64,000 bases of DNA from Escherichia phage vB_EcoM_G2540 (MK327936.1), one strand, 5' to 3'; shown: positions 14,886 through 58,888, counted from the stretch's first letter. Program-made: numbers and translations. The notes: generated by a model not told the origin, from the sequence alone.

Positions 14886-14912
14886 AGCGCTCTCCTCTAT
14901 AAGATAATTCTA

Positions 14913-14941
14913 TTATACCATACTCATTTTGGAAAGTAAAC
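14913..14941 (-). promoter_or_regulatory. T4-type early promoter
   Basis: plus gtaaac 14936-14941, 17-bp spacer, plus attata 14913-14918. Confidence 0.5.
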
Positions 14942-14950
14942 CATTTAAAT

Positions 14951-14977
14951 GAAAAAAGGACTCCCGAAGGAGTCCTT
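14951..14977 (-). terminator. intrinsic terminator after soc
   Basis: aggactc-ccgaa-ggagtcct hairpin followed on the transcript by a U-run; lies just 3' of the soc stop. Confidence 0.6.
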
Positions 14978-14983
14978 GAATTA

Positions 14984-15229
14984 TTAACCACCAGTTACTT
15001 TCCACAAATCTTCGTTTGCAGCAATCCATTCAGTACGCTGATTTTCTTCATATACAGTAGTATATGCTGCTTTTTCTGAAGGGAACGTCTGGTAATGAGC
15101 ACCAGAAATTTTGTGAACGTCAGAATAAAGAGGGAAAGCTACTGAAATTTCCTTTCCTTCAATTTTCTTATTTCCATCTAATTTCTGCTCAAATGTTTTG
15201 ATATTAACATAACCGCGAGTACTAGCCAT
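14984..15229 (-). CDS. soc: small outer capsid protein Soc, 81 aa
   Basis: MASTRGYVNIKTFEQKLDGNKKIEGKEISVAFPLYSDVHK... matches recalled T4 Soc; late promoter upstream. Confidence 0.8.
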   Translation of the reverse strand: MASTRGYVNIKTFEQKLDGNKKIEGKEISVAFPLYSDVHKISGAHYQTFPSEKAAYTTVYEENQRTEWIAANEDLWKVTGG

Positions 15230-22883: not shown

Positions 22884-22999
22884 TATATTTTTCCATAGGC
22901 AGCATTATATTTTACTCATGTTTATAATAAAGGGTATTGTTATACCCAGAGTTTAACTACATCATATTTAATAATGAGATAATTATATCACCTTATCAT

Positions 23000-23113
23000 T
23001 TAGCATTTACTTTTTGATTTCTTACTTTCATAAAGGTCATACAGATACAATCCAGCAAGACTAACTGCGGCAAATATTCCTAAGCCAGTAATGAATAATA
23101 AAGGTCCTAACAT
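23000..23113 (-). CDS. candidate small hydrophobic peptide, 37 aa
   Basis: hand translation MLGPLLFITGLGIFAAVSLAGLYLYDLYESKKSKSKC in the uvsX-bgt intergenic region. Confidence 0.3.
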   Translation of the reverse strand: MLGPLLFITGLGIFAAVSLAGLYLYDLYESKKSKSKC

Positions 23114-23125
23114 ATTAACCTCAAA

Positions 23126-24203
23126 TTAAGCGGTGATATCGAGAACGCGAAGAAGCTCTTCTTGCCATTCTGATTTTAAACTTTGATACTTAAATAGGGT
23201 TTGATGTTGTATTGTAATCAATTCCCGCCTCAAGCACTCATTGGTTTTTAACTCATTTACTAAAGTTTCAAAATCATTTTTATTCTTAACGTAGAATCTA
23301 GGGTCGTCAATAATAAGATGCTCGCTATCAAACTCTTCATCGATAAGCATCACAGCATCTGATGCCATGGCCTCCCAGACTCTAATTGTGATAAAATTAT
23401 CATTGTAATCTTTATCACCAATGACTATAGTTGCTATCGCTTGGCTATTCGTGTCAATAACCAAATTTGATGCTATTTTTTTGACTGAATGATGGAGCTA
23501 CATTCCACGGAAATTTAGGATTTTTAAACTGTTTCTCTTTAATAGTTCCAAACATTTTAATATTTAAATTGGTATCAAAAAGAAATTCAACTATTTTAGA
23601 CTCTCGTTGCCCACCTCTAAACGCGCCGCAGTACACAACGTCATATTTTTTAATAGTTTGATTCGCAGGTTTAAGTTTCTGTGAATGAATAAAATATCTA
23701 TCTACAGGAAAGTAATCATACTCAAATTCTTTACCGTATCTTTCGGTTGTTTTCTTATGAGCCTTTTTAGCAATTTCTAGATTTCTGCCCTGAGATATTA
23801 CTTTAAAGTCAGATGACACAAATAAGTCTTCATCTTTGTATTCACTTGAAAATTTCTTTCTGCGAACTACCGGAAGAACTTGCATAAATCCAAGACGGCC
23901 ATCAGTAAAAATATAATAAATTTTACTTCTATATTCAGCCATCAATTTATATGAATTTAAAACGATTGGATTTTTCTTTCCACCGAAGAAATTGATAGCG
24001 CCATTAATTACTATTAGTCTATCGTATGAATTTATATCAGTTACTACATCAAATGATATAGTGTATTCAGTATTTCGCATTGAAATTATATCAACGGAAT
24101 GCCCTAATTCAGTTAAAGACCTGCCTATTAAAATAGTTTCGGCTGATGATACTATTTTAAAATCACTCACAGTATTACTTAAATTTAGAATAGCTATTTT
24201 CAT
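23126..24203 (-). pseudogene. bgt: beta-glucosyltransferase-like gene split by a frameshift in an A7 run
   Basis: 249-aa N-terminal ORF plus 112-aa C-terminal ORF together resemble recalled T4 beta-gt (~60% identity); frames switch at the T7 run 23476-23482; removing one base restores FSQKIASNLVIDTNSQAIA, colinear with T4. Confidence 0.65.
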
Positions 24204-25057
24204 GATATTTCCGTAACTTCAACTTTGTGAATAGCATTAAACTTATGAAATGCTTCTGATTTTTCTTTACGCGAAACGCACATGCGAAGAACCTTTAATG
24301 GCTCGTCTTCTTCACCCAACGATTTTCGTTTTTCAATATTAGAAGTTTTCCAACGAGCTTGCTCTGGAAACTCTCTATTGATTTGCTCAAGCGCTCTATT
24401 ATGTTTAGAATTACTACGAATTGAACTACACCCGCCAGGAGCTTGTGCTTTTCCAGATACAACTAGATATTTGAACAAGGCCAAATGCGGATAACCTTGA
24501 TTAATTAAATTGAGAAATGCATACATATCTTCGCATAAATCAATTTTTCCATACCCAATTTGTTCTGTCGTAAGTTTTCCGAGGTCATACCATGTATTCG
24601 TGAATCCATATGAATTTTCACGATAATTACCCCAAGATGAAGTAATTTTAAAAATTGGTAGACGAGCATGACCGTGATAATACCCGCAATCCATGGCATC
24701 TTCAACATATTGAATCAATTCATAGAACTGTTCACGAGTCAATTGATTGACTTTATCTACGCAACGCCGATCATCTCTTTTTCGCATTGAACTCATACGA
24801 ATAGTAGTATCATCGTCAATCATCCAGATTCGTTGACCTGCATACATATCAGTAATTGCTTTACGAGTACCAGCAATTCCATTTACATCATCAGGAATAG
24901 TTATAATTTTAGCTCTAGACCCATAGGCATCATAATAAGCTTTTTCTTCGTGTTCACGTACTACAATATGTGGTTCATAATCAGTCGGAAACATATCAAG
25001 GGCAGAAACTGCCCCTACACGTTGATAGCTTGGAATTACGAATTGAATCATTTCCAC
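24200..25057 (-). CDS. putative GT-A-fold glycosyltransferase, 285 aa
   Basis: N-terminal QFVIPSYQR resembles the GT2 VIPTYN motif; DxD-like IWMIDDDTT ~80 aa in; sits between bgt and gene 42. Confidence 0.4.
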   Translation of the reverse strand: MEMIQFVIPSYQRVGAVSALDMFPTDYEPHIVVREHEEKAYYDAYGSRAKIITIPDDVNGIAGTRKAITDMYAGQRIWMIDDDTTIRMSSMRKRDDRRCVDKVNQLTREQFYELIQYVEDAMDCGYYHGHARLPIFKITSSWGNYRENSYGFTNTWYDLGKLTTEQIGYGKIDLCEDMYAFLNLINQGYPHLALFKYLVVSGKAQAPGGCSSIRSNSKHNRALEQINREFPEQARWKTSNIEKRKSLGEEDEPLKVLRMCVSRKEKSEAFHKFNAIHKVEVTEIS

Positions 25058-26864: not shown

Positions 26865-26894
26865 ATAGTACCATGGAAGAACAGTCTTGTAAAC
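26865..26894 (-). promoter_or_regulatory. T4-type early promoter (repeated cassette family)
   Basis: plus gtaaac 26889-26894, 18-bp spacer, plus atagta 26865-26870; shares the gatagttgtatagtacca block with promoters at 53.3, 55.2 and 58.8 kb. Confidence 0.5.
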
Positions 26895-26974
26895 AGTTTT
26901 GTGAAATTTTTTAGGGAATCCAAAGGGTCCAGAATCATCTGTTTTTCATAAGTATAGATTTATATTACTTGTAT

Positions 26975-26998
26975 GAAAAAGGGACCCGGAGGTCCCTA
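26975..26998 (-). terminator. intrinsic terminator after gene 43
   Basis: agggacc-cgga-ggtccct hairpin followed on the transcript by UUUUUC; 3' of the gene 43 stop. Confidence 0.6.
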
Positions 26999-32871: not shown

Positions 32872-33063
32872 TTAGTCATAATAATCAGTAACAGTCCAAG
32901 CTTCATTTCTATTGGACATTATTTTTGTATATTCTGCTTTAAATGCATTCCTAAGCATAGATTCAGTAACTATATGCTCTTCATTAGAAAAATTATTTCT
33001 CAGAATATATCGTTTTATTTCAGGAATAGTTAATAGATGCTGTCCGGTTGAATATTCTGCCAC
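32872..33063 (-). CDS. small conserved protein (45.2 position), 63 aa
   Basis: size and position. Confidence 0.5.
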   Translation of the reverse strand: MAEYSTGQHLLTIPEIKRYILRNNFSNEEHIVTESMLRNAFKAEYTKIMSNRNEAWTVTDYYD

Positions 33064-33073
33064 AGTTCCTCCG

Positions 33074-33081
33074 TATAAATA
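33074..33081 (+). promoter_or_regulatory. late promoter TATAAATA on the plus strand
   Basis: exact TATAAATA at 33074-33081, 34 bp upstream of the HNH ORF start, followed by an AAAGGA Shine-Dalgarno. Confidence 0.55.
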
Positions 33082-33114
33082 TGTTTATCACTCGCTGTAT
33101 CAAAAGGATATGTT

Positions 33115-33831
33115 ATGAATTATAAACTAATTTATGAAAAGTTAATCTCTAATGCTAAATCTCGAAAACTTGATTGTTATACTGAATCTCATCACATTAT
33201 ACCACGCTGTTTAAATGGCAGCGATGATGCTTCAAACTTAGTAGATTTAACACCAGAAGAGCACTATGTAGCTCATCAACTTTTAGTAAAAATTTATCCT
33301 TCTGAACCAAAATTAGTCTATGCTGCTAACATGATGACAGTTTCTACGAAATACGCTAAACGCAACAATAAAACTTTCGGTTGGATTCGTCGTAAACTCT
33401 GGGAAATAGAAAAGAATAAAGAATTCTCCCAGGAGACACGAAAGAAAATGTCTGATGCAGTAGCTAATAAAGCAAGACTAACTTGTCCTCATTGCGGTAA
33501 GTCTGGATTAAGCGGGAATATGAATCGTTGGCATTTTGATAACTGCCCAAATCACCCTAATCCTAAAGTTAGACCACCAATGTCTAAAGAACACAGAAAT
33601 AATATCTCAAACGGGCTTAAAGCAATCGTTCTTGAAGAAACATCCTGCGAATTCTGCGGAATGATAGGCAAGAAATGCGTTATCGCAGCGCATAGAAATT
33701 TCTGCAAGAAAAATCCAAATGGACGCAAGAAAACTGAAAAGACTGGTACTTGCGTCCATTGTGGTAAAGTTACCACTTTCGGAAATTTATCAAGATGGCA
33801 TAATGATAACTGTAAATATAAACTTAGCTAA
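33115..33831 (+). mobile_element. free-standing HNH homing endonuclease, 238 aa, with three C-terminal zinc-ribbon repeats
   Basis: HNH motif ESHHIIPRCLNGSDDASNLVDLTPEEHYVAHQ; three Cys-rich repeats (CPHCGK...RWHFDNC, CEFCG...AAHRNFC, CVHCGK...RWHNDNC); opposite strand to neighbours. Confidence 0.8.
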
Positions 33832-35512
33832 TCTTAGCTAAACTAAATCTACCAACTTTTTCCATCTGAATATGCTGACCATATTCTTGTGGGTCATGGT
33901 CTTTATGTGAAATTATGAAGAAGTTGGTATCCTTCAAACCATCTAAAATTTTAGCTACATTTTTAATACCTTCAGCATCAAATGCACCGTCATACACTTC
34001 ATCAAGAAATAAACAACTTATTTTAACACCTGAAACTTTTTCAGCAATATCACGCCAAGTAAATAAAAGAGCAATATCAATTCGTGCTTTTTCACCTTGA
34101 CTGAATGAAGCATAACTAAAATCTTCACGACCACGGGATTTAATTGTCTCATTAAATTCTTCATCTAATGTAAACACATAATCCGCTTCCATTATTTTAA
34201 GATAATGGTTAATCTGCTTATTAAATAATGGAATGTACTTTTTAATAATAGCACCTTTAATACCAGAATCTTTGAGCATATCAGTCAAAATTCCTCGGTG
34301 GTATTTTTCCATTACTAAATTAGTTTTTGTCTTAACAATTTTATCAAGTTCTTCTTGAAGCAGTGCTATTTCATCAGCATGGTCAATAAACTCAGAAGAT
34401 GCTTTTTCTATAGCCGCTTTAACTTTTTTAGCTTTATCTACCGTCGTGATTAGAGATTGCTTTTTATTGCGAATATCATTTGCCAGCGACTGCTGGGTTT
34501 TAATATTATCTCGGTATTCATCAACAAGAACTTTTAAATTATCACGATGTGTTGAAAGCTGTTCAAACGAATGCGTGCATTCAGAAACTTTATCTTTAAT
34601 TTTAGAAACAACTTTATCACCGGAACTTAATTGTGACAAACAGGTTGGACATAATCCACCTTCGTGATACATATTAATGACTTTATTATATGAGTCAATT
34701 TTTGATTTAATTAAAACTGCTTCTTGACCGATTTTATTAAATGCATCAGTCGGGTCTTCATCCAAAACAATATTAACTAATCTTTCATTAGCTTCTTCTA
34801 TTTCCGATTTTAGCGTTCTAGCTTCTTTTGCCAAATCATCGTACATATTTTGCAGACGAGTAAGGTTGTCACCCGTTAATTTTTTCTGGCGTTCAACGTT
34901 ATCATTATATATTTTAATTTGTTGGATAATACTATCTTTTTTAACATCAAGCACTTGGTTCTGCGAATTTAATTCACGTATTAGTGCTTTATTAAGCTTA
35001 TCCATTTCAGCTAATGTTCCTACCTCGAGCAGGTCTTCCACAAGCTTTCTTCGCGCAGGGGTCGACAAACCCATGAAAGGGGTATACCCTGCTGTACCAA
35101 GGACAACAATCTGCTTGAAACTGGCATATGACATTCCGATAAGCTGTTCAAATTCTGCTTGGAAATCTTTACTGCTGGCAGATTCATTAAGACGTGTACC
35201 GTTAACGGTGATTTCGAAAACGTTTGGTTTTTGTCCTCTTTTGATATAGTACTTTTTCTCATCATATTCCATCCACAGTTCAACTAAAAGTTCTTTCTTA
35301 TTTGTGCTGTTTATTAATTGACCTTTCTTTACATCACGGAATGGCTTGCCAAAAAGCCCAAATGTGATGGCTTCTAACATAGTAGACTTACCACCGCCAT
35401 TTCGTCCAGTAATAAGAGTTTTTTGAACCTTATCTAATTGAATGTCAATAGGATTTCCACCTACTGACATTATATTTTGATACCTAACTCGGTTTAGTTT
35501 AAAATTCTTCAC
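33824..35512 (-). CDS. 46: recombination nuclease subunit gp46 (Rad50/SbcC-like ATPase), 562 aa
   Basis: Walker A GRNGGGKST, long coiled-coil middle, signature/Walker B at C-terminus; T4 length ~560. Confidence 0.85.
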   Translation of the reverse strand: MKNFKLNRVRYQNIMSVGGNPIDIQLDKVQKTLITGRNGGGKSTMLEAITFGLFGKPFRDVKKGQLINSTNKKELLVELWMEYDEKKYYIKRGQKPNVFEITVNGTRLNESASSKDFQAEFEQLIGMSYASFKQIVVLGTAGYTPFMGLSTPARRKLVEDLLEVGTLAEMDKLNKALIRELNSQNQVLDVKKDSIIQQIKIYNDNVERQKKLTGDNLTRLQNMYDDLAKEARTLKSEIEEANERLVNIVLDEDPTDAFNKIGQEAVLIKSKIDSYNKVINMYHEGGLCPTCLSQLSSGDKVVSKIKDKVSECTHSFEQLSTHRDNLKVLVDEYRDNIKTQQSLANDIRNKKQSLITTVDKAKKVKAAIEKASSEFIDHADEIALLQEELDKIVKTKTNLVMEKYHRGILTDMLKDSGIKGAIIKKYIPLFNKQINHYLKIMEADYVFTLDEEFNETIKSRGREDFSYASFSQGEKARIDIALLFTWRDIAEKVSGVKISCLFLDEVYDGAFDAEGIKNVAKILDGLKDTNFFIISHKDHDPQEYGQHIQMEKVGRFSLAKIS

Positions 35513-35959: not shown

Positions 35960-36975
35960 TGTGTTGCCTCTACATATAACTGATTTGCATATTGAATAAG
36001 TGCTTCACGGTCAGAATCAGTGATGTCTGGAATTGCATTAATGTATTCTTCCATCAACGTCTGAAGAGATTGAACTTCAACTTCTTCACTTTCATCTGAC
36101 TCGACAGAGTTATCAATCTTTGACACAACTCGTAATGAATGCACAACTTTTTCTAGTTCAGATTCGAACTTCGTTAGATTTTTGTCTACTTCAGTTACTA
36201 TAACACGTACTGATAGATTTGTAAAATCTTTATAGTCAATTTTTCCTTTAAATGGATAATGAATTCTGCGATGCCAAGTAGTGTTGTTTGGAATAAATTC
36301 CATTCGTTCTGTTTCTGTATCAAACATCCAGAACCCGCGAGGGTCATTCTCGTCACCTGCAGTTAGTGTCCATGGTGTCCCAATATATCTGACATTTGCA
36401 GCCTCAGAGATAGTATGGAAGTGACCAGACCACACTTCTTTATAAGTCTTAAGGAAATCAGGTTCAAGACCGTGAGATTTCATTCCTTTATAAAAATAAA
36501 ATCCATTCAGTTCCCAGTGACCAACACAAAAAGAAGCAGATGAAGTTTTGATGTGTTCAAGAATTTCACCAGTATTTTCTTCGCACATCCAAGGAATCAA
36601 ATCAATCAAACATCCGTCAAAATCTACTGTAGTAGGCTTATCATATACTTTAACATTAGGATATTTAGCCAAAAGCTCAGTAGAGGCATTTGGATGCATT
36701 ACATTTTTGTAGTGGAGATCGTGATTTCCTACAATAGTATGTAATGTGATTCCAGCGTCATCAAGCATTTGAACTATTTCACGGGCAAACTCCATAGTTT
36801 TATGCGTGATTGCTTTTCGCACATCAAAAATATCACCATATTGAATCCATACAGTAATTCCATTTTTCTTAGAATATTCTATCGCTTGCTTAATTCCATC
36901 AATTTGAATACCGCGAATCCACTCATCATCAGCTTTAACGCCTAAATGCCAATCACCCAAGTTTAGTATTTTCAT
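35956..36975 (-). CDS. 47: recombination nuclease subunit gp47 (Mre11/SbcD-like), 339 aa
   Basis: 339 aa as in T4; phosphoesterase motifs (LGDWHLG, GNHD). Confidence 0.85.
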   Translation of the reverse strand: MKILNLGDWHLGVKADDEWIRGIQIDGIKQAIEYSKKNGITVWIQYGDIFDVRKAITHKTMEFAREIVQMLDDAGITLHTIVGNHDLHYKNVMHPNASTELLAKYPNVKVYDKPTTVDFDGCLIDLIPWMCEENTGEILEHIKTSSASFCVGHWELNGFYFYKGMKSHGLEPDFLKTYKEVWSGHFHTISEAANVRYIGTPWTLTAGDENDPRGFWMFDTETERMEFIPNNTTWHRRIHYPFKGKIDYKDFTNLSVRVIVTEVDKNLTKFESELEKVVHSLRVVSKIDNSVESDESEEVEVQSLQTLMEEYINAIPDITDSDREALIQYANQLYVEATQ

Positions 36976-37576
36976 GGTGTCTTTTCCATCCTAATTTAGC
37001 TGCTTTTGAAACCAGTTCTTTAATTTTTCCTTTTGTCCATTCAGGACCAGGAGGTTCATGACATAACATTTGCTTAACTCCGTTATTATACCATTTTTTA
37101 CCTTTATTATGTGATGAAGCTTTAAATTTATTTGACCTTCCTTTTACATAACCTTCTGGAATATAAGGCAAAAAGGCAGATTTTCCTGTTAATGGATCAT
37201 GTGAATGTATATTTCCTTTACAATTATGAGAACCATATAATGGATGATTTTGTCCTTTATTATCTCTTCCAAATGAACCTTTTGGAGCAGCATATGACAT
37301 ATTAAAGAATAATGGATTTTTAACTGCATCATGCAATCGTTGATAATATAACTCGCATTTAATAGCTTCTTCACGCGTATCAAATTCAGCTAAAATGCAT
37401 GAATCAAATAAGTGAGGATTATCTGAAAGCTCTTTATTATAAATTTTCTTATACTTTTTAGATAAAACTGAACCATGATATCCAGCTAAATGCCTATCTA
37501 AAGACGTAGATCCAATATAAAAAGGAGGAAGTTTATCTCCACTATATATTGTTAAATAAGTTATATATTTTTTCAT
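36953..37576 (-). mobile_element. GIY-YIG (Seg-like) homing endonuclease, 207 aa
   Basis: GIY-YIG module YITYLTIY...FYIGSTS with downstream Arg and Glu; basic C-terminal region; 3' end overlaps the gene 47 start by 23 nt. Confidence 0.7.
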
Positions 37577-41730: not shown

Positions 41731-42024
41731 TCAGCTGTAACGATAGCACTCGTTTGATTTACGTTTAGCAACTCGTTGAGAAGTATTATAATCAAAATCA
41801 TCGTCAATGTAAACTGATTTTTTCAACTTTCTTACTTCACCACGTAATTGGCGATTTAGCTCATCTTTAACTTCTGAATCAATACCTTTCATTCTACGCC
41901 ATTTATCTGAGCGAAAAATGTTTTCAACCATATCTTTATGACTTACCCCATCAGGAGCTTTACGCTTTCCGAAATAGTCATAATCACGCACTTTTAAGTC
42001 TTTACGACGATACGTTTTACCCAT
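41731..42024 (-). CDS. basic hypothetical protein (~97 aa from internal Met)
   Basis: ORF 41731..42063 trimmed to MGKTYRRKD...; Lys/Arg-rich. Confidence 0.35.
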   Translation of the reverse strand: MGKTYRRKDLKVRDYDYFGKRKAPDGVSHKDMVENIFRSDKWRRMKGIDSEVKDELNRQLRGEVRKLKKSVYIDDDFDYNTSQRVAKRKSNECYRYS

Positions 42025-54711: not shown

Positions 54712-54747
54712 TTTATTCTCCAATCTCACATTTGTTTTGATAGGGTA

Positions 54748-54777
54748 ATAGTATCACACTACTACCCTTTTGTAAAC
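54748..54777 (-). promoter_or_regulatory. T4-type early promoter
   Basis: plus gtaaac 54772-54777, 18-bp spacer, plus atagta 54748-54753. Confidence 0.5.
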
Positions 54778-54780
54778 AAT

Positions 54781-55044
54781 TTATTTTAACGTTCGCCAAA
54801 TTTTTACTGCTTCACGGCGAGATACTTCTACAGCTCCAAGTTCTACAGCTTTTTGGCGTCGGCGAGCGTGTAAGTCATAATGTTTAATGCGTTTATCTTG
54901 AAACCAAGAACGTTTCATTCCTATTGCTTCTGCCATTTCATGAAGCTCTTCAATATCTCCATCAGTGAACATATGACAATTTTTAGTTGGATGACCGCGA
55001 AGTTTCCATCCATGATTCATTAAAACATCTACGTAAACTGTCAT
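54781..55044 (-). CDS. hypothetical protein, 87 aa
   Basis: ORF; His/Arg-rich. Confidence 0.4.
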   Translation of the reverse strand: MTVYVDVLMNHGWKLRGHPTKNCHMFTDGDIEELHEMAEAIGMKRSWFQDKRIKHYDLHARRRQKAVELGAVEVSRREAVKIWRTLK

Positions 55045-55190
55045 TGATTCTTCTCCAAATAAGTTTCGATAATTTTCTGAGCGAGATAAACTGCATTATC
55101 TTCAGTTGCATCTTCTAAGAAACTTTCAAAACACTCTGAAATTTCTTCTGTATCAATCAACTTTTTTACTTCAATTGGTGTAATTTTCAT
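55041..55190 (-). CDS. small hypothetical protein (~49 aa from internal Met)
   Basis: ORF 55041..55361 trimmed to MKITPIEVKK because upstream sequence is promoter/terminator. Confidence 0.3.
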   Translation of the reverse strand: MKITPIEVKKLIDTEEISECFESFLEDATEDNAVYLAQKIIETYLEKNQ

Positions 55191-55227
55191 TTTGTTTTTC
55201 CGTTTAAGTGTTTGTTTTGATAGTTGT

Positions 55228-55257
55228 ATAGTACCATAAAGCTTTATGCTTGTAAAC
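55228..55257 (-). promoter_or_regulatory. T4-type early promoter (repeated cassette family)
   Basis: plus gtaaac 55252-55257, 18-bp spacer, plus atagta 55228-55233. Confidence 0.5.
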
Positions 55258-55282
55258 AATTTTGTGAAAAATTTTTGAAATA

Positions 55283-55308
55283 AAAAAAGGGAGCCCGAAG
55301 GCTCCCTA
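55283..55308 (-). terminator. intrinsic terminator
   Basis: agggagc-ccgaa-ggctccct hairpin followed on the transcript by UUUUUUUAUUU; 3' of the 328-aa ORF. Confidence 0.6.
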
Positions 55309-58824: not shown

Positions 58825-58854
58825 ATAGTACCACAGCTCAAACGGAAAGTAAAC
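58825..58854 (-). promoter_or_regulatory. T4-type early promoter (repeated cassette family)
   Basis: plus gtaaac 58849-58854, 18-bp spacer, plus atagta 58825-58830. Confidence 0.5.
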
Positions 58855-58864
58855 CGGCAAAATG

Positions 58865-58888
58865 AAAAAAGTCTCCCGAAGGAGACTA
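58865..58888 (-). terminator. intrinsic terminator
   Basis: agtctc-ccgaa-ggagact hairpin followed on the transcript by UUUUUUC; 3' of the 128-aa ORF. Confidence 0.6.

Follow-up and report, generated by a model that had tools for sequence, protein, structure and literature searches.

Early promoter and stem-loop cassettes in a T4-like Escherichia phage and the variable gene slot between nrdC.11 and nrdC.10

Tuerk and colleagues are said to have described, in 1988, C(UUCG)G tetraloop hairpins in the intercistronic regions of T4. The promoter-early stem-loop (PeSL) was named by Arbiol et al. 2010 in RB49/phi1, where terminator and promoter activity was shown with lacZ reporters and the formation of excision mini-circles by PCR (PMC2839356). 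A catalogue of the PeSLs of PST and T4 (and also of nt-1/KVP40), with the consensus TTTACW-N17-TAYWAT, was given by Comeau et al. 2014 (PMC4122927). Stem-loops that lie within the spacer or across the -10 have also been described for PeSLs (PMC2839356, PMC4122927). The early promoters of T4 are 'uber' UP/-35/TGn/-10 promoters used by host sigma-70 RNA polymerase immediately post-infection (Hinton 2010, PMC2988021). The cassettes studied here are already known, because they are found in T4 itself and the class has been published for T4 and PST. The additions of the present study are only the description of the multi-state nrdC.11|nrdC.10 slot and a negative enrichment result.

The window, that is the whole stretch of DNA analysed, comprises 64,000 nucleotides of Escherichia phage vB_EcoM_G2540 (MK327936.1). 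It is a Tequatrovirus (T4-like) segment spanning rIIA to denV, with nearly all of its genes on the minus strand. Using T4 nomenclature for the gene names, the order is rIIA, 39, dda, modA/B, soc, 56, 61, 41, uvsX, 42 and 43, followed by 45, 46/47, a-gt, 55, nrdD, 49 and nrdC.1-11 in the middle, and by the mobD.x genes, rI, tk, vs, regB and denV at the end. From 54 to 60 kb it is 100% identical to Escherichia phage vB_EcoM_G9062 (Tequatrovirus), and outside this region it is a mosaic with 95-99% identity to hundreds of T4-like phages. Structural differences were mapped against ten relatives (T4, G9062, G29, EPIMAM01, BMB16, ECO4, YwIITB1, EcNP1, 215Ecol and CT01); 44-64 kb was covered by all ten and 1-44 kb by T4, G9062, G29 and YwIITB1 only. 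Breakpoints were mapped by stringent megablast with a 200-bp overlap tolerance; with permissive blastn, replacements were masked within long low-identity alignments. Sequence anatomy, strand bias, repeat structure and the seams in relatives, as given below, are direct observations. The features are collected in Table 1.

Table 1. Location of cassettes, promoters, hairpins, modules and insertions (window positions except where another segment is named)
Feature	Location	Strand	Details
14.9-kb cassette, soc/mrh.2	14912..14977	minus	hairpin 14977-14956, AAGGACUCC-UUCG-GGAGUCCUU + U6, -15.1 kcal/mol; promoter 14941-14912, GTTTACTTTCCAAAATGAGTATGGTATAAT
26.9-kb cassette, gene 43/downstream ORF	26865..26997	minus	hairpin 26997-26980, AGGGACC-UCCG-GGUCCCU + U5, -13.9 kcal/mol; promoter 26894-26865, GTTTACAAGACTGTTCTTCCATGGTACTAT
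55.3-kb cassette, nrdC.11/nrdC.10	hairpin 55307-55288, promoter 55257-55228	minus	UUCG loop
58.9-kb cassette, rI.-1/mobD.5	58825..58887	minus	hairpin 58887-58870, AGUCUCC-UUCG-GGAGACU + U5, -10.8 kcal/mol; promoter 58854-58825, GTTTACTTTCCGTTTGAGCTGTGGTACTAT
nrdC.11 unit terminator	55288..55307	minus	AGGGAGCC-UUCG-GGCUCCCU + U7; -17.5 kcal/mol, z = -4.1
T-tail and A/T-rich UP-like stretch	55258..55287	minus	TTTTTTTATTTCAAAAATTTTTCACAAAATT; module B seam in G29, 215Ecol, T2
P55257	55228..55257	minus	GTTTAC-N15-TGG-TACTAT (-35, extended -10, -10)
Leader	55191..55227	minus	shared motif ACAACTATCAAAACAAA, then ATG of 49-aa ORF; upstream seam of module A
Module A (493 bp)	54724..55216	minus	49-aa ORF 55190-55041, 87-aa DUF4031 ORF 55044-54781
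P54777	54748..54777	minus	early promoter without upstream terminator
Module B ORF	G29 segment 11697-12182; T2 segment 575-1060		outside window; segments compared
P53335	53306..53335	minus	early promoter without terminator; nearly the same as P26894
P50357	50328..50357	minus	early promoter; second subfamily, with P2447
P2447	2418..2447	minus	early promoter upstream of rIIA.1; partner of P50357
P5929, cef/motB intergenic	5965-5845	minus	variant -35: TATACA-N17-TACTAT
Other C(UUCG)G-type hairpins	4334, 21670, 29782, 29859, 31731, 37755, 39025, 41392	minus	no downstream early promoter
Spacer/SD pairs	63707-63640, 63060-62995, 53335-53270, 7626-7560, 17271-17210, 14941-14880	minus	predicted duplexes
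Insertion against several relatives	22924-24228		1303 bp, between uvsX and glucosyltransferase gene
Insertion against several relatives	33057-33844		786 bp, between 45.2 and 46
Insertion against several relatives	36975-37570		594 bp after gene 47; HNH endonuclease annotation in G9062

About 20 T4-type early promoters (GTTTAC-N17-TAYWAT) are present in the window. A motif search with GTTTACW-N17-TAYWAT gave 17 strict matches against an expectation of 0.08; every one of them is on the minus strand of the window. With a looser -10 there are 19 consensus promoters, and each of the 19 is followed by SD and ATG 25-45 nt after the -10. Matches at 41814 and 46650 were left out because they are intragenic, have no downstream SD/ATG and score low (14.3 for 41814) or below threshold (under 12 for 46650) with the PWM. 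Scanning the window with the PWM added P5929, a good promoter whose -35 is a variant, together with two weak promoters; no match was found on the plus strand. The highest score in the window (45.0) belongs to P55257 of the nrdC.11|nrdC.10 cassette. The promoters consist of an A/T-rich upstream stretch (often TTTTTCACAAA(A/G)TT), the -35 GTTTAC, an extended -10 (TGn) and the -10 TAYWAT, which is the UP/-35/TGn/-10 architecture of the T4 early promoter (Pe) on the early-transcribed strand.

Hairpins of the C(UUCG)G type are equally one-sided, with 12 on the minus strand of the window and 0 on the plus strand. An early promoter is downstream of only four of the 12, and the eight promoter-less hairpins lie mostly between replication and modification genes. 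The pairing of four in 12 exceeds that expected for random positions (p = 0.0002) but does not significantly exceed what the proportion of promoter-bearing gene junctions would give (p = 0.11). In addition, about 15 early promoters of the window have no upstream terminator. The terminator and the promoter are not an obligate unit. The four cassette hairpins have folding energies of -10.8 to -17.5 kcal/mol (fold z -2.9 to -4.2), and like rho-independent terminators they combine a 7-9-bp stem, in which 4-6 pairs are G-C, with a run of 5-7 T directly behind it; the stem sequences differ from one cassette to the next while the structure is kept. The same sites carry terminator or promoter annotation by the depositors of G9062, G29 and Lutter. 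An Rfam scan of the whole window gave no family above threshold, so the cassettes are not a curated RNA family. Since several of the C(UUCG)G hairpins precede U-tracts, they may act as intrinsic terminators or as stabilisers of mRNA 3' ends.

Cassettes in which a terminator is followed by an early promoter are present on the minus strand at 14.9, 26.9, 55.3 and 58.9 kb, where the first-pass annotation had placed them, and T4 has the same cassettes at the same loci (soc|mrh.2, 43|imm.1, nrdC.11|nrdC.10 and rI.-1|mobD.5). All four fit TTTACW-N17-TAYWAT, their hairpins lie 13-84 nt upstream of the -35, and the A/T-rich stretch and SD/ATG of PeSLs are also found in the window. The identification of T4-type early promoters behind tetraloop terminators with the published PeSLs holds, with 17 matches to the consensus (PMC4122927). 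The promoter had been said to follow within about 30 bp of the terminator; this is true at 14.9, 55.3 and 58.9 kb (13, 29 and 14 nt, respectively) and not at 26.9 kb (84 nt). A block of about 25 bp had been proposed for the promoters at 26.8, 53.3, 55.2 and 58.8 kb. Its 18-nt part TGGTACTATACAACTATC is exact in all four (0.02 expected even allowing up to three mismatches), but the 'cttgtaaac' part (GTTTACAAG) occurs in three of them and the 58.8-kb copy reads GTTTACTTT. The other block, proposed for the promoters at 2.4 and 50.3 kb, was recovered as well, P2447 and P50357 being identical at 28 of 30 positions with an exact run of 20 nt. The copies are more alike than random promoter matches, as had been supposed: exact runs of 18-24 nt are shared among 26894, 53335, 55257 and 58854, against at most 12 nt in pairs of random 120-mers. 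The identity of the promoter core is 0.60 on average over all 171 pairs and 0.90-0.93 in the closest pairs. The identity of the UP elements is only 0.17-0.67, and the likeness fades outside the functional elements.

The promoters P26894 and P53335 share a 24-nt exact run and are about 90% identical over about 48 nt, leader included. Similarly, a segment of about 80 bp with P54777 recurs in more distant phages in other contexts, beside the internal head protein gene and cef, with 87-88% identity. It could be argued from such cases that the promoter subfamilies are products of recent duplication or gene conversion and represent a self-spreading mobile promoter element. We consider this very unlikely, as the same promoters stand at the same loci in T4 and in hundreds of relatives, so that any spread of promoters must be ancient, and as the likeness decays in the UP elements. 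A self-mobile promoter element was rejected: there are no terminal repeats, no target-site duplications and no transposase, integrase or other recombinase.

The clearest variation among relatives was observed at the nrdC.11|nrdC.10 slot. The terminator at this place has the same sequence in T4 and is an annotated terminator in G9062. The alignment of the window to T4, ECO4 and YwIITB1 breaks at 55217, and these three phages are without module A. In the search bearing on module A, at least 80% of the query was covered by 136 of 557 records and about 45% by most others. The module brings its own promoter, P54777, at its distal end. Measured from the two -10 hexamers, the ends of the module are 11 and 25 nt downstream, at the shared CTATCAA(AACAAA). 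Among the 557 phage records, three modules are arranged in at least six combinations. The slot is empty (nrdC.11, terminator, UP, promoter, nrdC.10) in T4, ECO4 and YwIITB1; module A is added in the window, G9062, EPIMAM01, BMB16, EcNP1 and CT01; module B is found in T2, and B together with A in G29, 215Ecol and SYGD1; module C, which has a 66-aa ORF, is found in phiD1, and A together with C in slur03. A 146-bp tandem duplication inside module A was seen in CT01 (segment 9335-9482, corresponding to window 54916-55061), giving an extra 49-aa ORF.

Module B (about 620 bp) comes with a promoter of its own, a 161-aa ORF and a separate, different terminator. The 161-aa protein matches the C-terminal part of phrog_832 (RNA polymerase ADP-ribosylase; E = 7.5e-24) and has no Pfam match. 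Module B is flanked by direct repeats of 41 bp in G29 (window 55252-55292) and of 56 bp in 215Ecol (55252-55307), and the repeated sequence is that of the terminator arm, T-tail, UP element and -35. The seams in the slot lie in the terminator tail, the UP element or the -35, or just past the -10, within 13-56 bp of shared cassette sequence, and every inter-module junction examined has promoter-like sequence. No endonuclease gene was found at the slot in any of the states examined. On sequence evidence, exchange of modules through cassette homology is clearly indicated at nrdC.11|nrdC.10, and to a lesser degree beside the promoters at 26.9 and 17.3 kb.

At 26.9 kb, a slot for a 78-aa ORF just downstream of P26894 (26581-26813) is present, absent or replaced among relatives, and the seam of the insertion is at the SD/ATG (ATGAAAAT), outside promoter and terminator. 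At 17.3 kb, T4 is without 540 bp bearing P17271, its junction falling within the UP motif ATCACAAA, and YwIITB1 has a 1468-bp deletion which ends 34 nt upstream of the -35 of P17271. For the 14.9-kb query, no single aligned place covered 80% in 147 of 504 records (about 29%); the sampled non-covering records break at 14992, 15 nt beyond the soc terminator, and have a divergent soc allele instead. In 498 of 501 genomes the 58.9-kb cassette shows no structural change. Its single variant, phage Shinka, has a 4.8-kb deletion from inside the -10 hexamer to the middle of nrdC.10; an exchange between two PeSLs was rejected for this case, since a deletion that starts in the -10 hexamer and ends inside the nrdC.10 gene is illegitimate and not cassette-to-cassette. 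A siting beside variable genes, with seams in the element, is seen at 55.3 kb, partly at 26.9, 17.3 and 14.9 kb, and is absent at 58.9 kb, and over the window there is no excess relative to other gene junctions.

The census of breakpoints, which rests on a small panel (10 genomes) and an approximate gene model, placed eight of 60 gene-content boundaries within 60 bp of an early promoter, against 4.5% at random (3x, p = 0.005), and the other 52 at greater distances. Gene-content boundaries fall at gene junctions anyway, and when junctions were compared, five of 18 promoter-bearing and 37 of 101 promoter-less ones were broken, with no excess (Fisher p = 0.84). Counting P5929 gave the same result (6/19 against 36/100, Fisher p = 0.73). 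The expectation of the first-pass annotation that breakpoints in relatives would coincide with the cassettes is borne out by the seams at nrdC.11|nrdC.10 and contradicted by the 52 distant boundaries. Likewise, its proposal that these elements are recombination substrates fits the flagged site at 55228-55308, where whole modules differ, and fails as a general rule, there being no junction excess and hardly any change at 58.9 kb. Its statement that the elements exactly bound the blocks of unknown genes is incorrect, as the upstream neighbours are soc, the DNA polymerase gene 43, nrdC.11 and rI.-1; only the unit between P58854 and the 55307 terminator (mobD.5 to nrdC.11) is such a block with a cassette at either end.

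These results bear on whether the cassettes could be regulatory only, the likeness of the promoters arising from selection to consensus with no special role in recombination, and the proximity of seams being a by-product of indels that are tolerated only at gene or operon boundaries. We regard this as possible, though unlikely. It is consistent with the lack of breakpoint excess at promoter-bearing junctions, with the near invariance of the 58.9-kb cassette, with the co-occurrence of terminator and promoter not exceeding the junction background, and with terminator stems that keep their structure and not their sequence, so that they have little homology on offer. It does not account well for the slot. 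There, the repeats of 41-56 bp that flank module B in G29 and 215Ecol are cassette sequence, modules A, B and C are joined within shared cassette sequence and not at arbitrary intergenic spots, and at least six module combinations occupy one place. Moreover, the exact runs of 18-24 nt reach into the transcribed leader, beyond the obvious needs of a promoter.

Many indels, including many of the largest, involve homing-endonuclease genes or introns (mobA-D, segA, segF and I-TevII in T4, and an HNH gene in the window), and three insertions of the window (Table 1) are probably homing-endonuclease genes. Several deletions have overlaps of 2-19 bp at plain gene starts, for example 49239/50280 (17 bp) and 63346/63364, where the 19-bp overlap was found in several comparisons. 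The window is also without about 2-2.9 kb (the vs.6-vs.8 region) that is found between vs.4/vs.5 and denV in all ten relatives, including G9062. The exact homology between cassettes within this genome, 18-24 nt, is short for efficient homologous recombination in T4. It could be supposed that homing endonucleases and illegitimate (microhomology) recombination are the main causes of variation in gene content, with the cassettes as bystanders that are sometimes hit, as the deletion of Shinka with its end inside a gene would suggest. This is improbable in our judgement, as the seams at nrdC.11|nrdC.10 fall on stretches of 13-56 bp that belong to the shared cassette sequence, and the states examined there are free of endonuclease genes.

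The cassettes are very probably signals of insulation and restart whose conserved 20-55 bp occasionally provide the homology by which promoter-carrying modules are moved. For termination, promoter activity and the mechanism of recombination we infer from the T4 literature the following course of events. A stable RNA hairpin of the C(UUCG)G type with its U-tract would end one prereplicative transcription unit, and host sigma-70 RNA polymerase would start the next unit from the early promoter immediately post-infection. Terminator and promoter together would insulate each group of early genes from the last and boost expression anew. As selection for the strongest possible promoter would keep 20-55 bp almost the same at many sites and across many phages, these signals could serve as opportunistic short patches of homology, and recombination at the patches could insert, delete or swap modules that carry their own promoter. 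This explanation is the published PeSL model.

Several promoters carry a further layer of structure. The palindrome CCACAAGGATGTGG is found in the spacers of P2447 and P50357, and inverted repeats lie across the -10 of P54777, P58043, P19934 and P6519. In P54777 the repeat is GGGTAGTA/TACTATTACCC, followed by CTATCAAAACAAA, and its counterpart in slur03 keeps an inverted repeat with another sequence (GGTCT/AGACC). The repeat of P58043 (58043-58000), TTGACAAG...CTTGTCAA, reads GGCAAG/CTTGCC in BMB16 and EcNP1, a single compensatory change, and EPIMAM01 and YwIITB1 show G·T intermediates. Together, this compensatory change and the retention of the stem in the slur03 counterpart of P54777 hint at selection on promoter-embedded stem-loops. 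P5929 has a perfect 11-bp inverted repeat across the -10 (CAGTAGTTGAT/ATCAACTACTG); downstream of it there is SD and ATG with only an 11-codon ORF remnant, and at cef|motB YwIITB1 has 197 bp more, giving an 89-aa ORF.

Several early promoters also have, between -35 and -10, a spacer whose sequence complements the Shine-Dalgarno region of the gene that follows the same promoter (Table 1). The predicted duplexes have energies of -10 to -23 kcal/mol, that of P53335 being -23 kcal/mol, and a permutation test of cognate against non-cognate pairs gave p ~ 0.01. With such complementarity, read-through transcripts could hide the ribosome-binding site, which transcripts from the proximal promoter would not do. 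This is analogous to the known late-promoter cases of e, soc, 49 and I-TevI (PMC3014915). A more far-reaching reading joins two proposals, that nrdC.11|nrdC.10 is a dedicated site of recurrent cassette acquisition and that promoter stem-loops are a general gate of translation; we give this joint reading little credence. In its first part, the terminator-UP-promoter sequence may act as a quasi-specific recombination site, with modules that include an RNA-polymerase-ADP-ribosylase-like gene. In its second, the first gene may be translated only from transcripts of its own promoter and not from read-through.

Beyond annotation, the meaning of these elements is limited. They define early transcription units of the phage and explain why accessory genes differ between T4-like phages in a few slots, above all at nrdC.11|nrdC.10. 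As T4-like phages are collected in bulk for therapy and for studies of defence and anti-defence, knowledge of such slots is useful. For the PeSL model there is a note of caution, in that for this window and this panel of relatives a cassette alone does not predict plasticity: one stays fixed across about 500 genomes, and another is a hotspot with many states.

In comparison with known systems, the elements of the window are PeSL composites of a stem-loop, an A/T-rich stretch, an early promoter of the sigma-70 type and SD/ATG. Like PeSLs they are intergenic, on the coding strand and beside variable ORFs; one module at the studied locus is flanked by two elements, as in the excision and insertion model; and the PeSL subclasses with a stem-loop in the spacer or across the -10 are represented by P2447, P50357, P54777, P58043 and P5929. 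Nothing essential differs, although the stems of the window are C(UUCG)G and those of RB49 are polyG/polyC, and although only some of the elements border variable genes, one being invariant in about 500 genomes, with no breakpoint excess. Against the early promoters of T4, architecture and loci are the same, with minor sequence differences and an extra P54777 in module A. The C(UUCG)G hairpins resemble the intercistronic hairpins of T4 in that all 12 lie on the transcribed strand only, and differ in that only four, with U-rich tail and early promoter, form cassettes, the rest lying between replication genes. A functional analogy, and only that, can be drawn with the attC cassettes of integrons, where one slot likewise receives varied small promoter-proximal modules joined at conserved structured sequences. 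Unlike attC cassettes, the slot has no integrase or site-specific site and each of its modules has its own promoter, exchange presumably taking place through general homologous or short-homology recombination.
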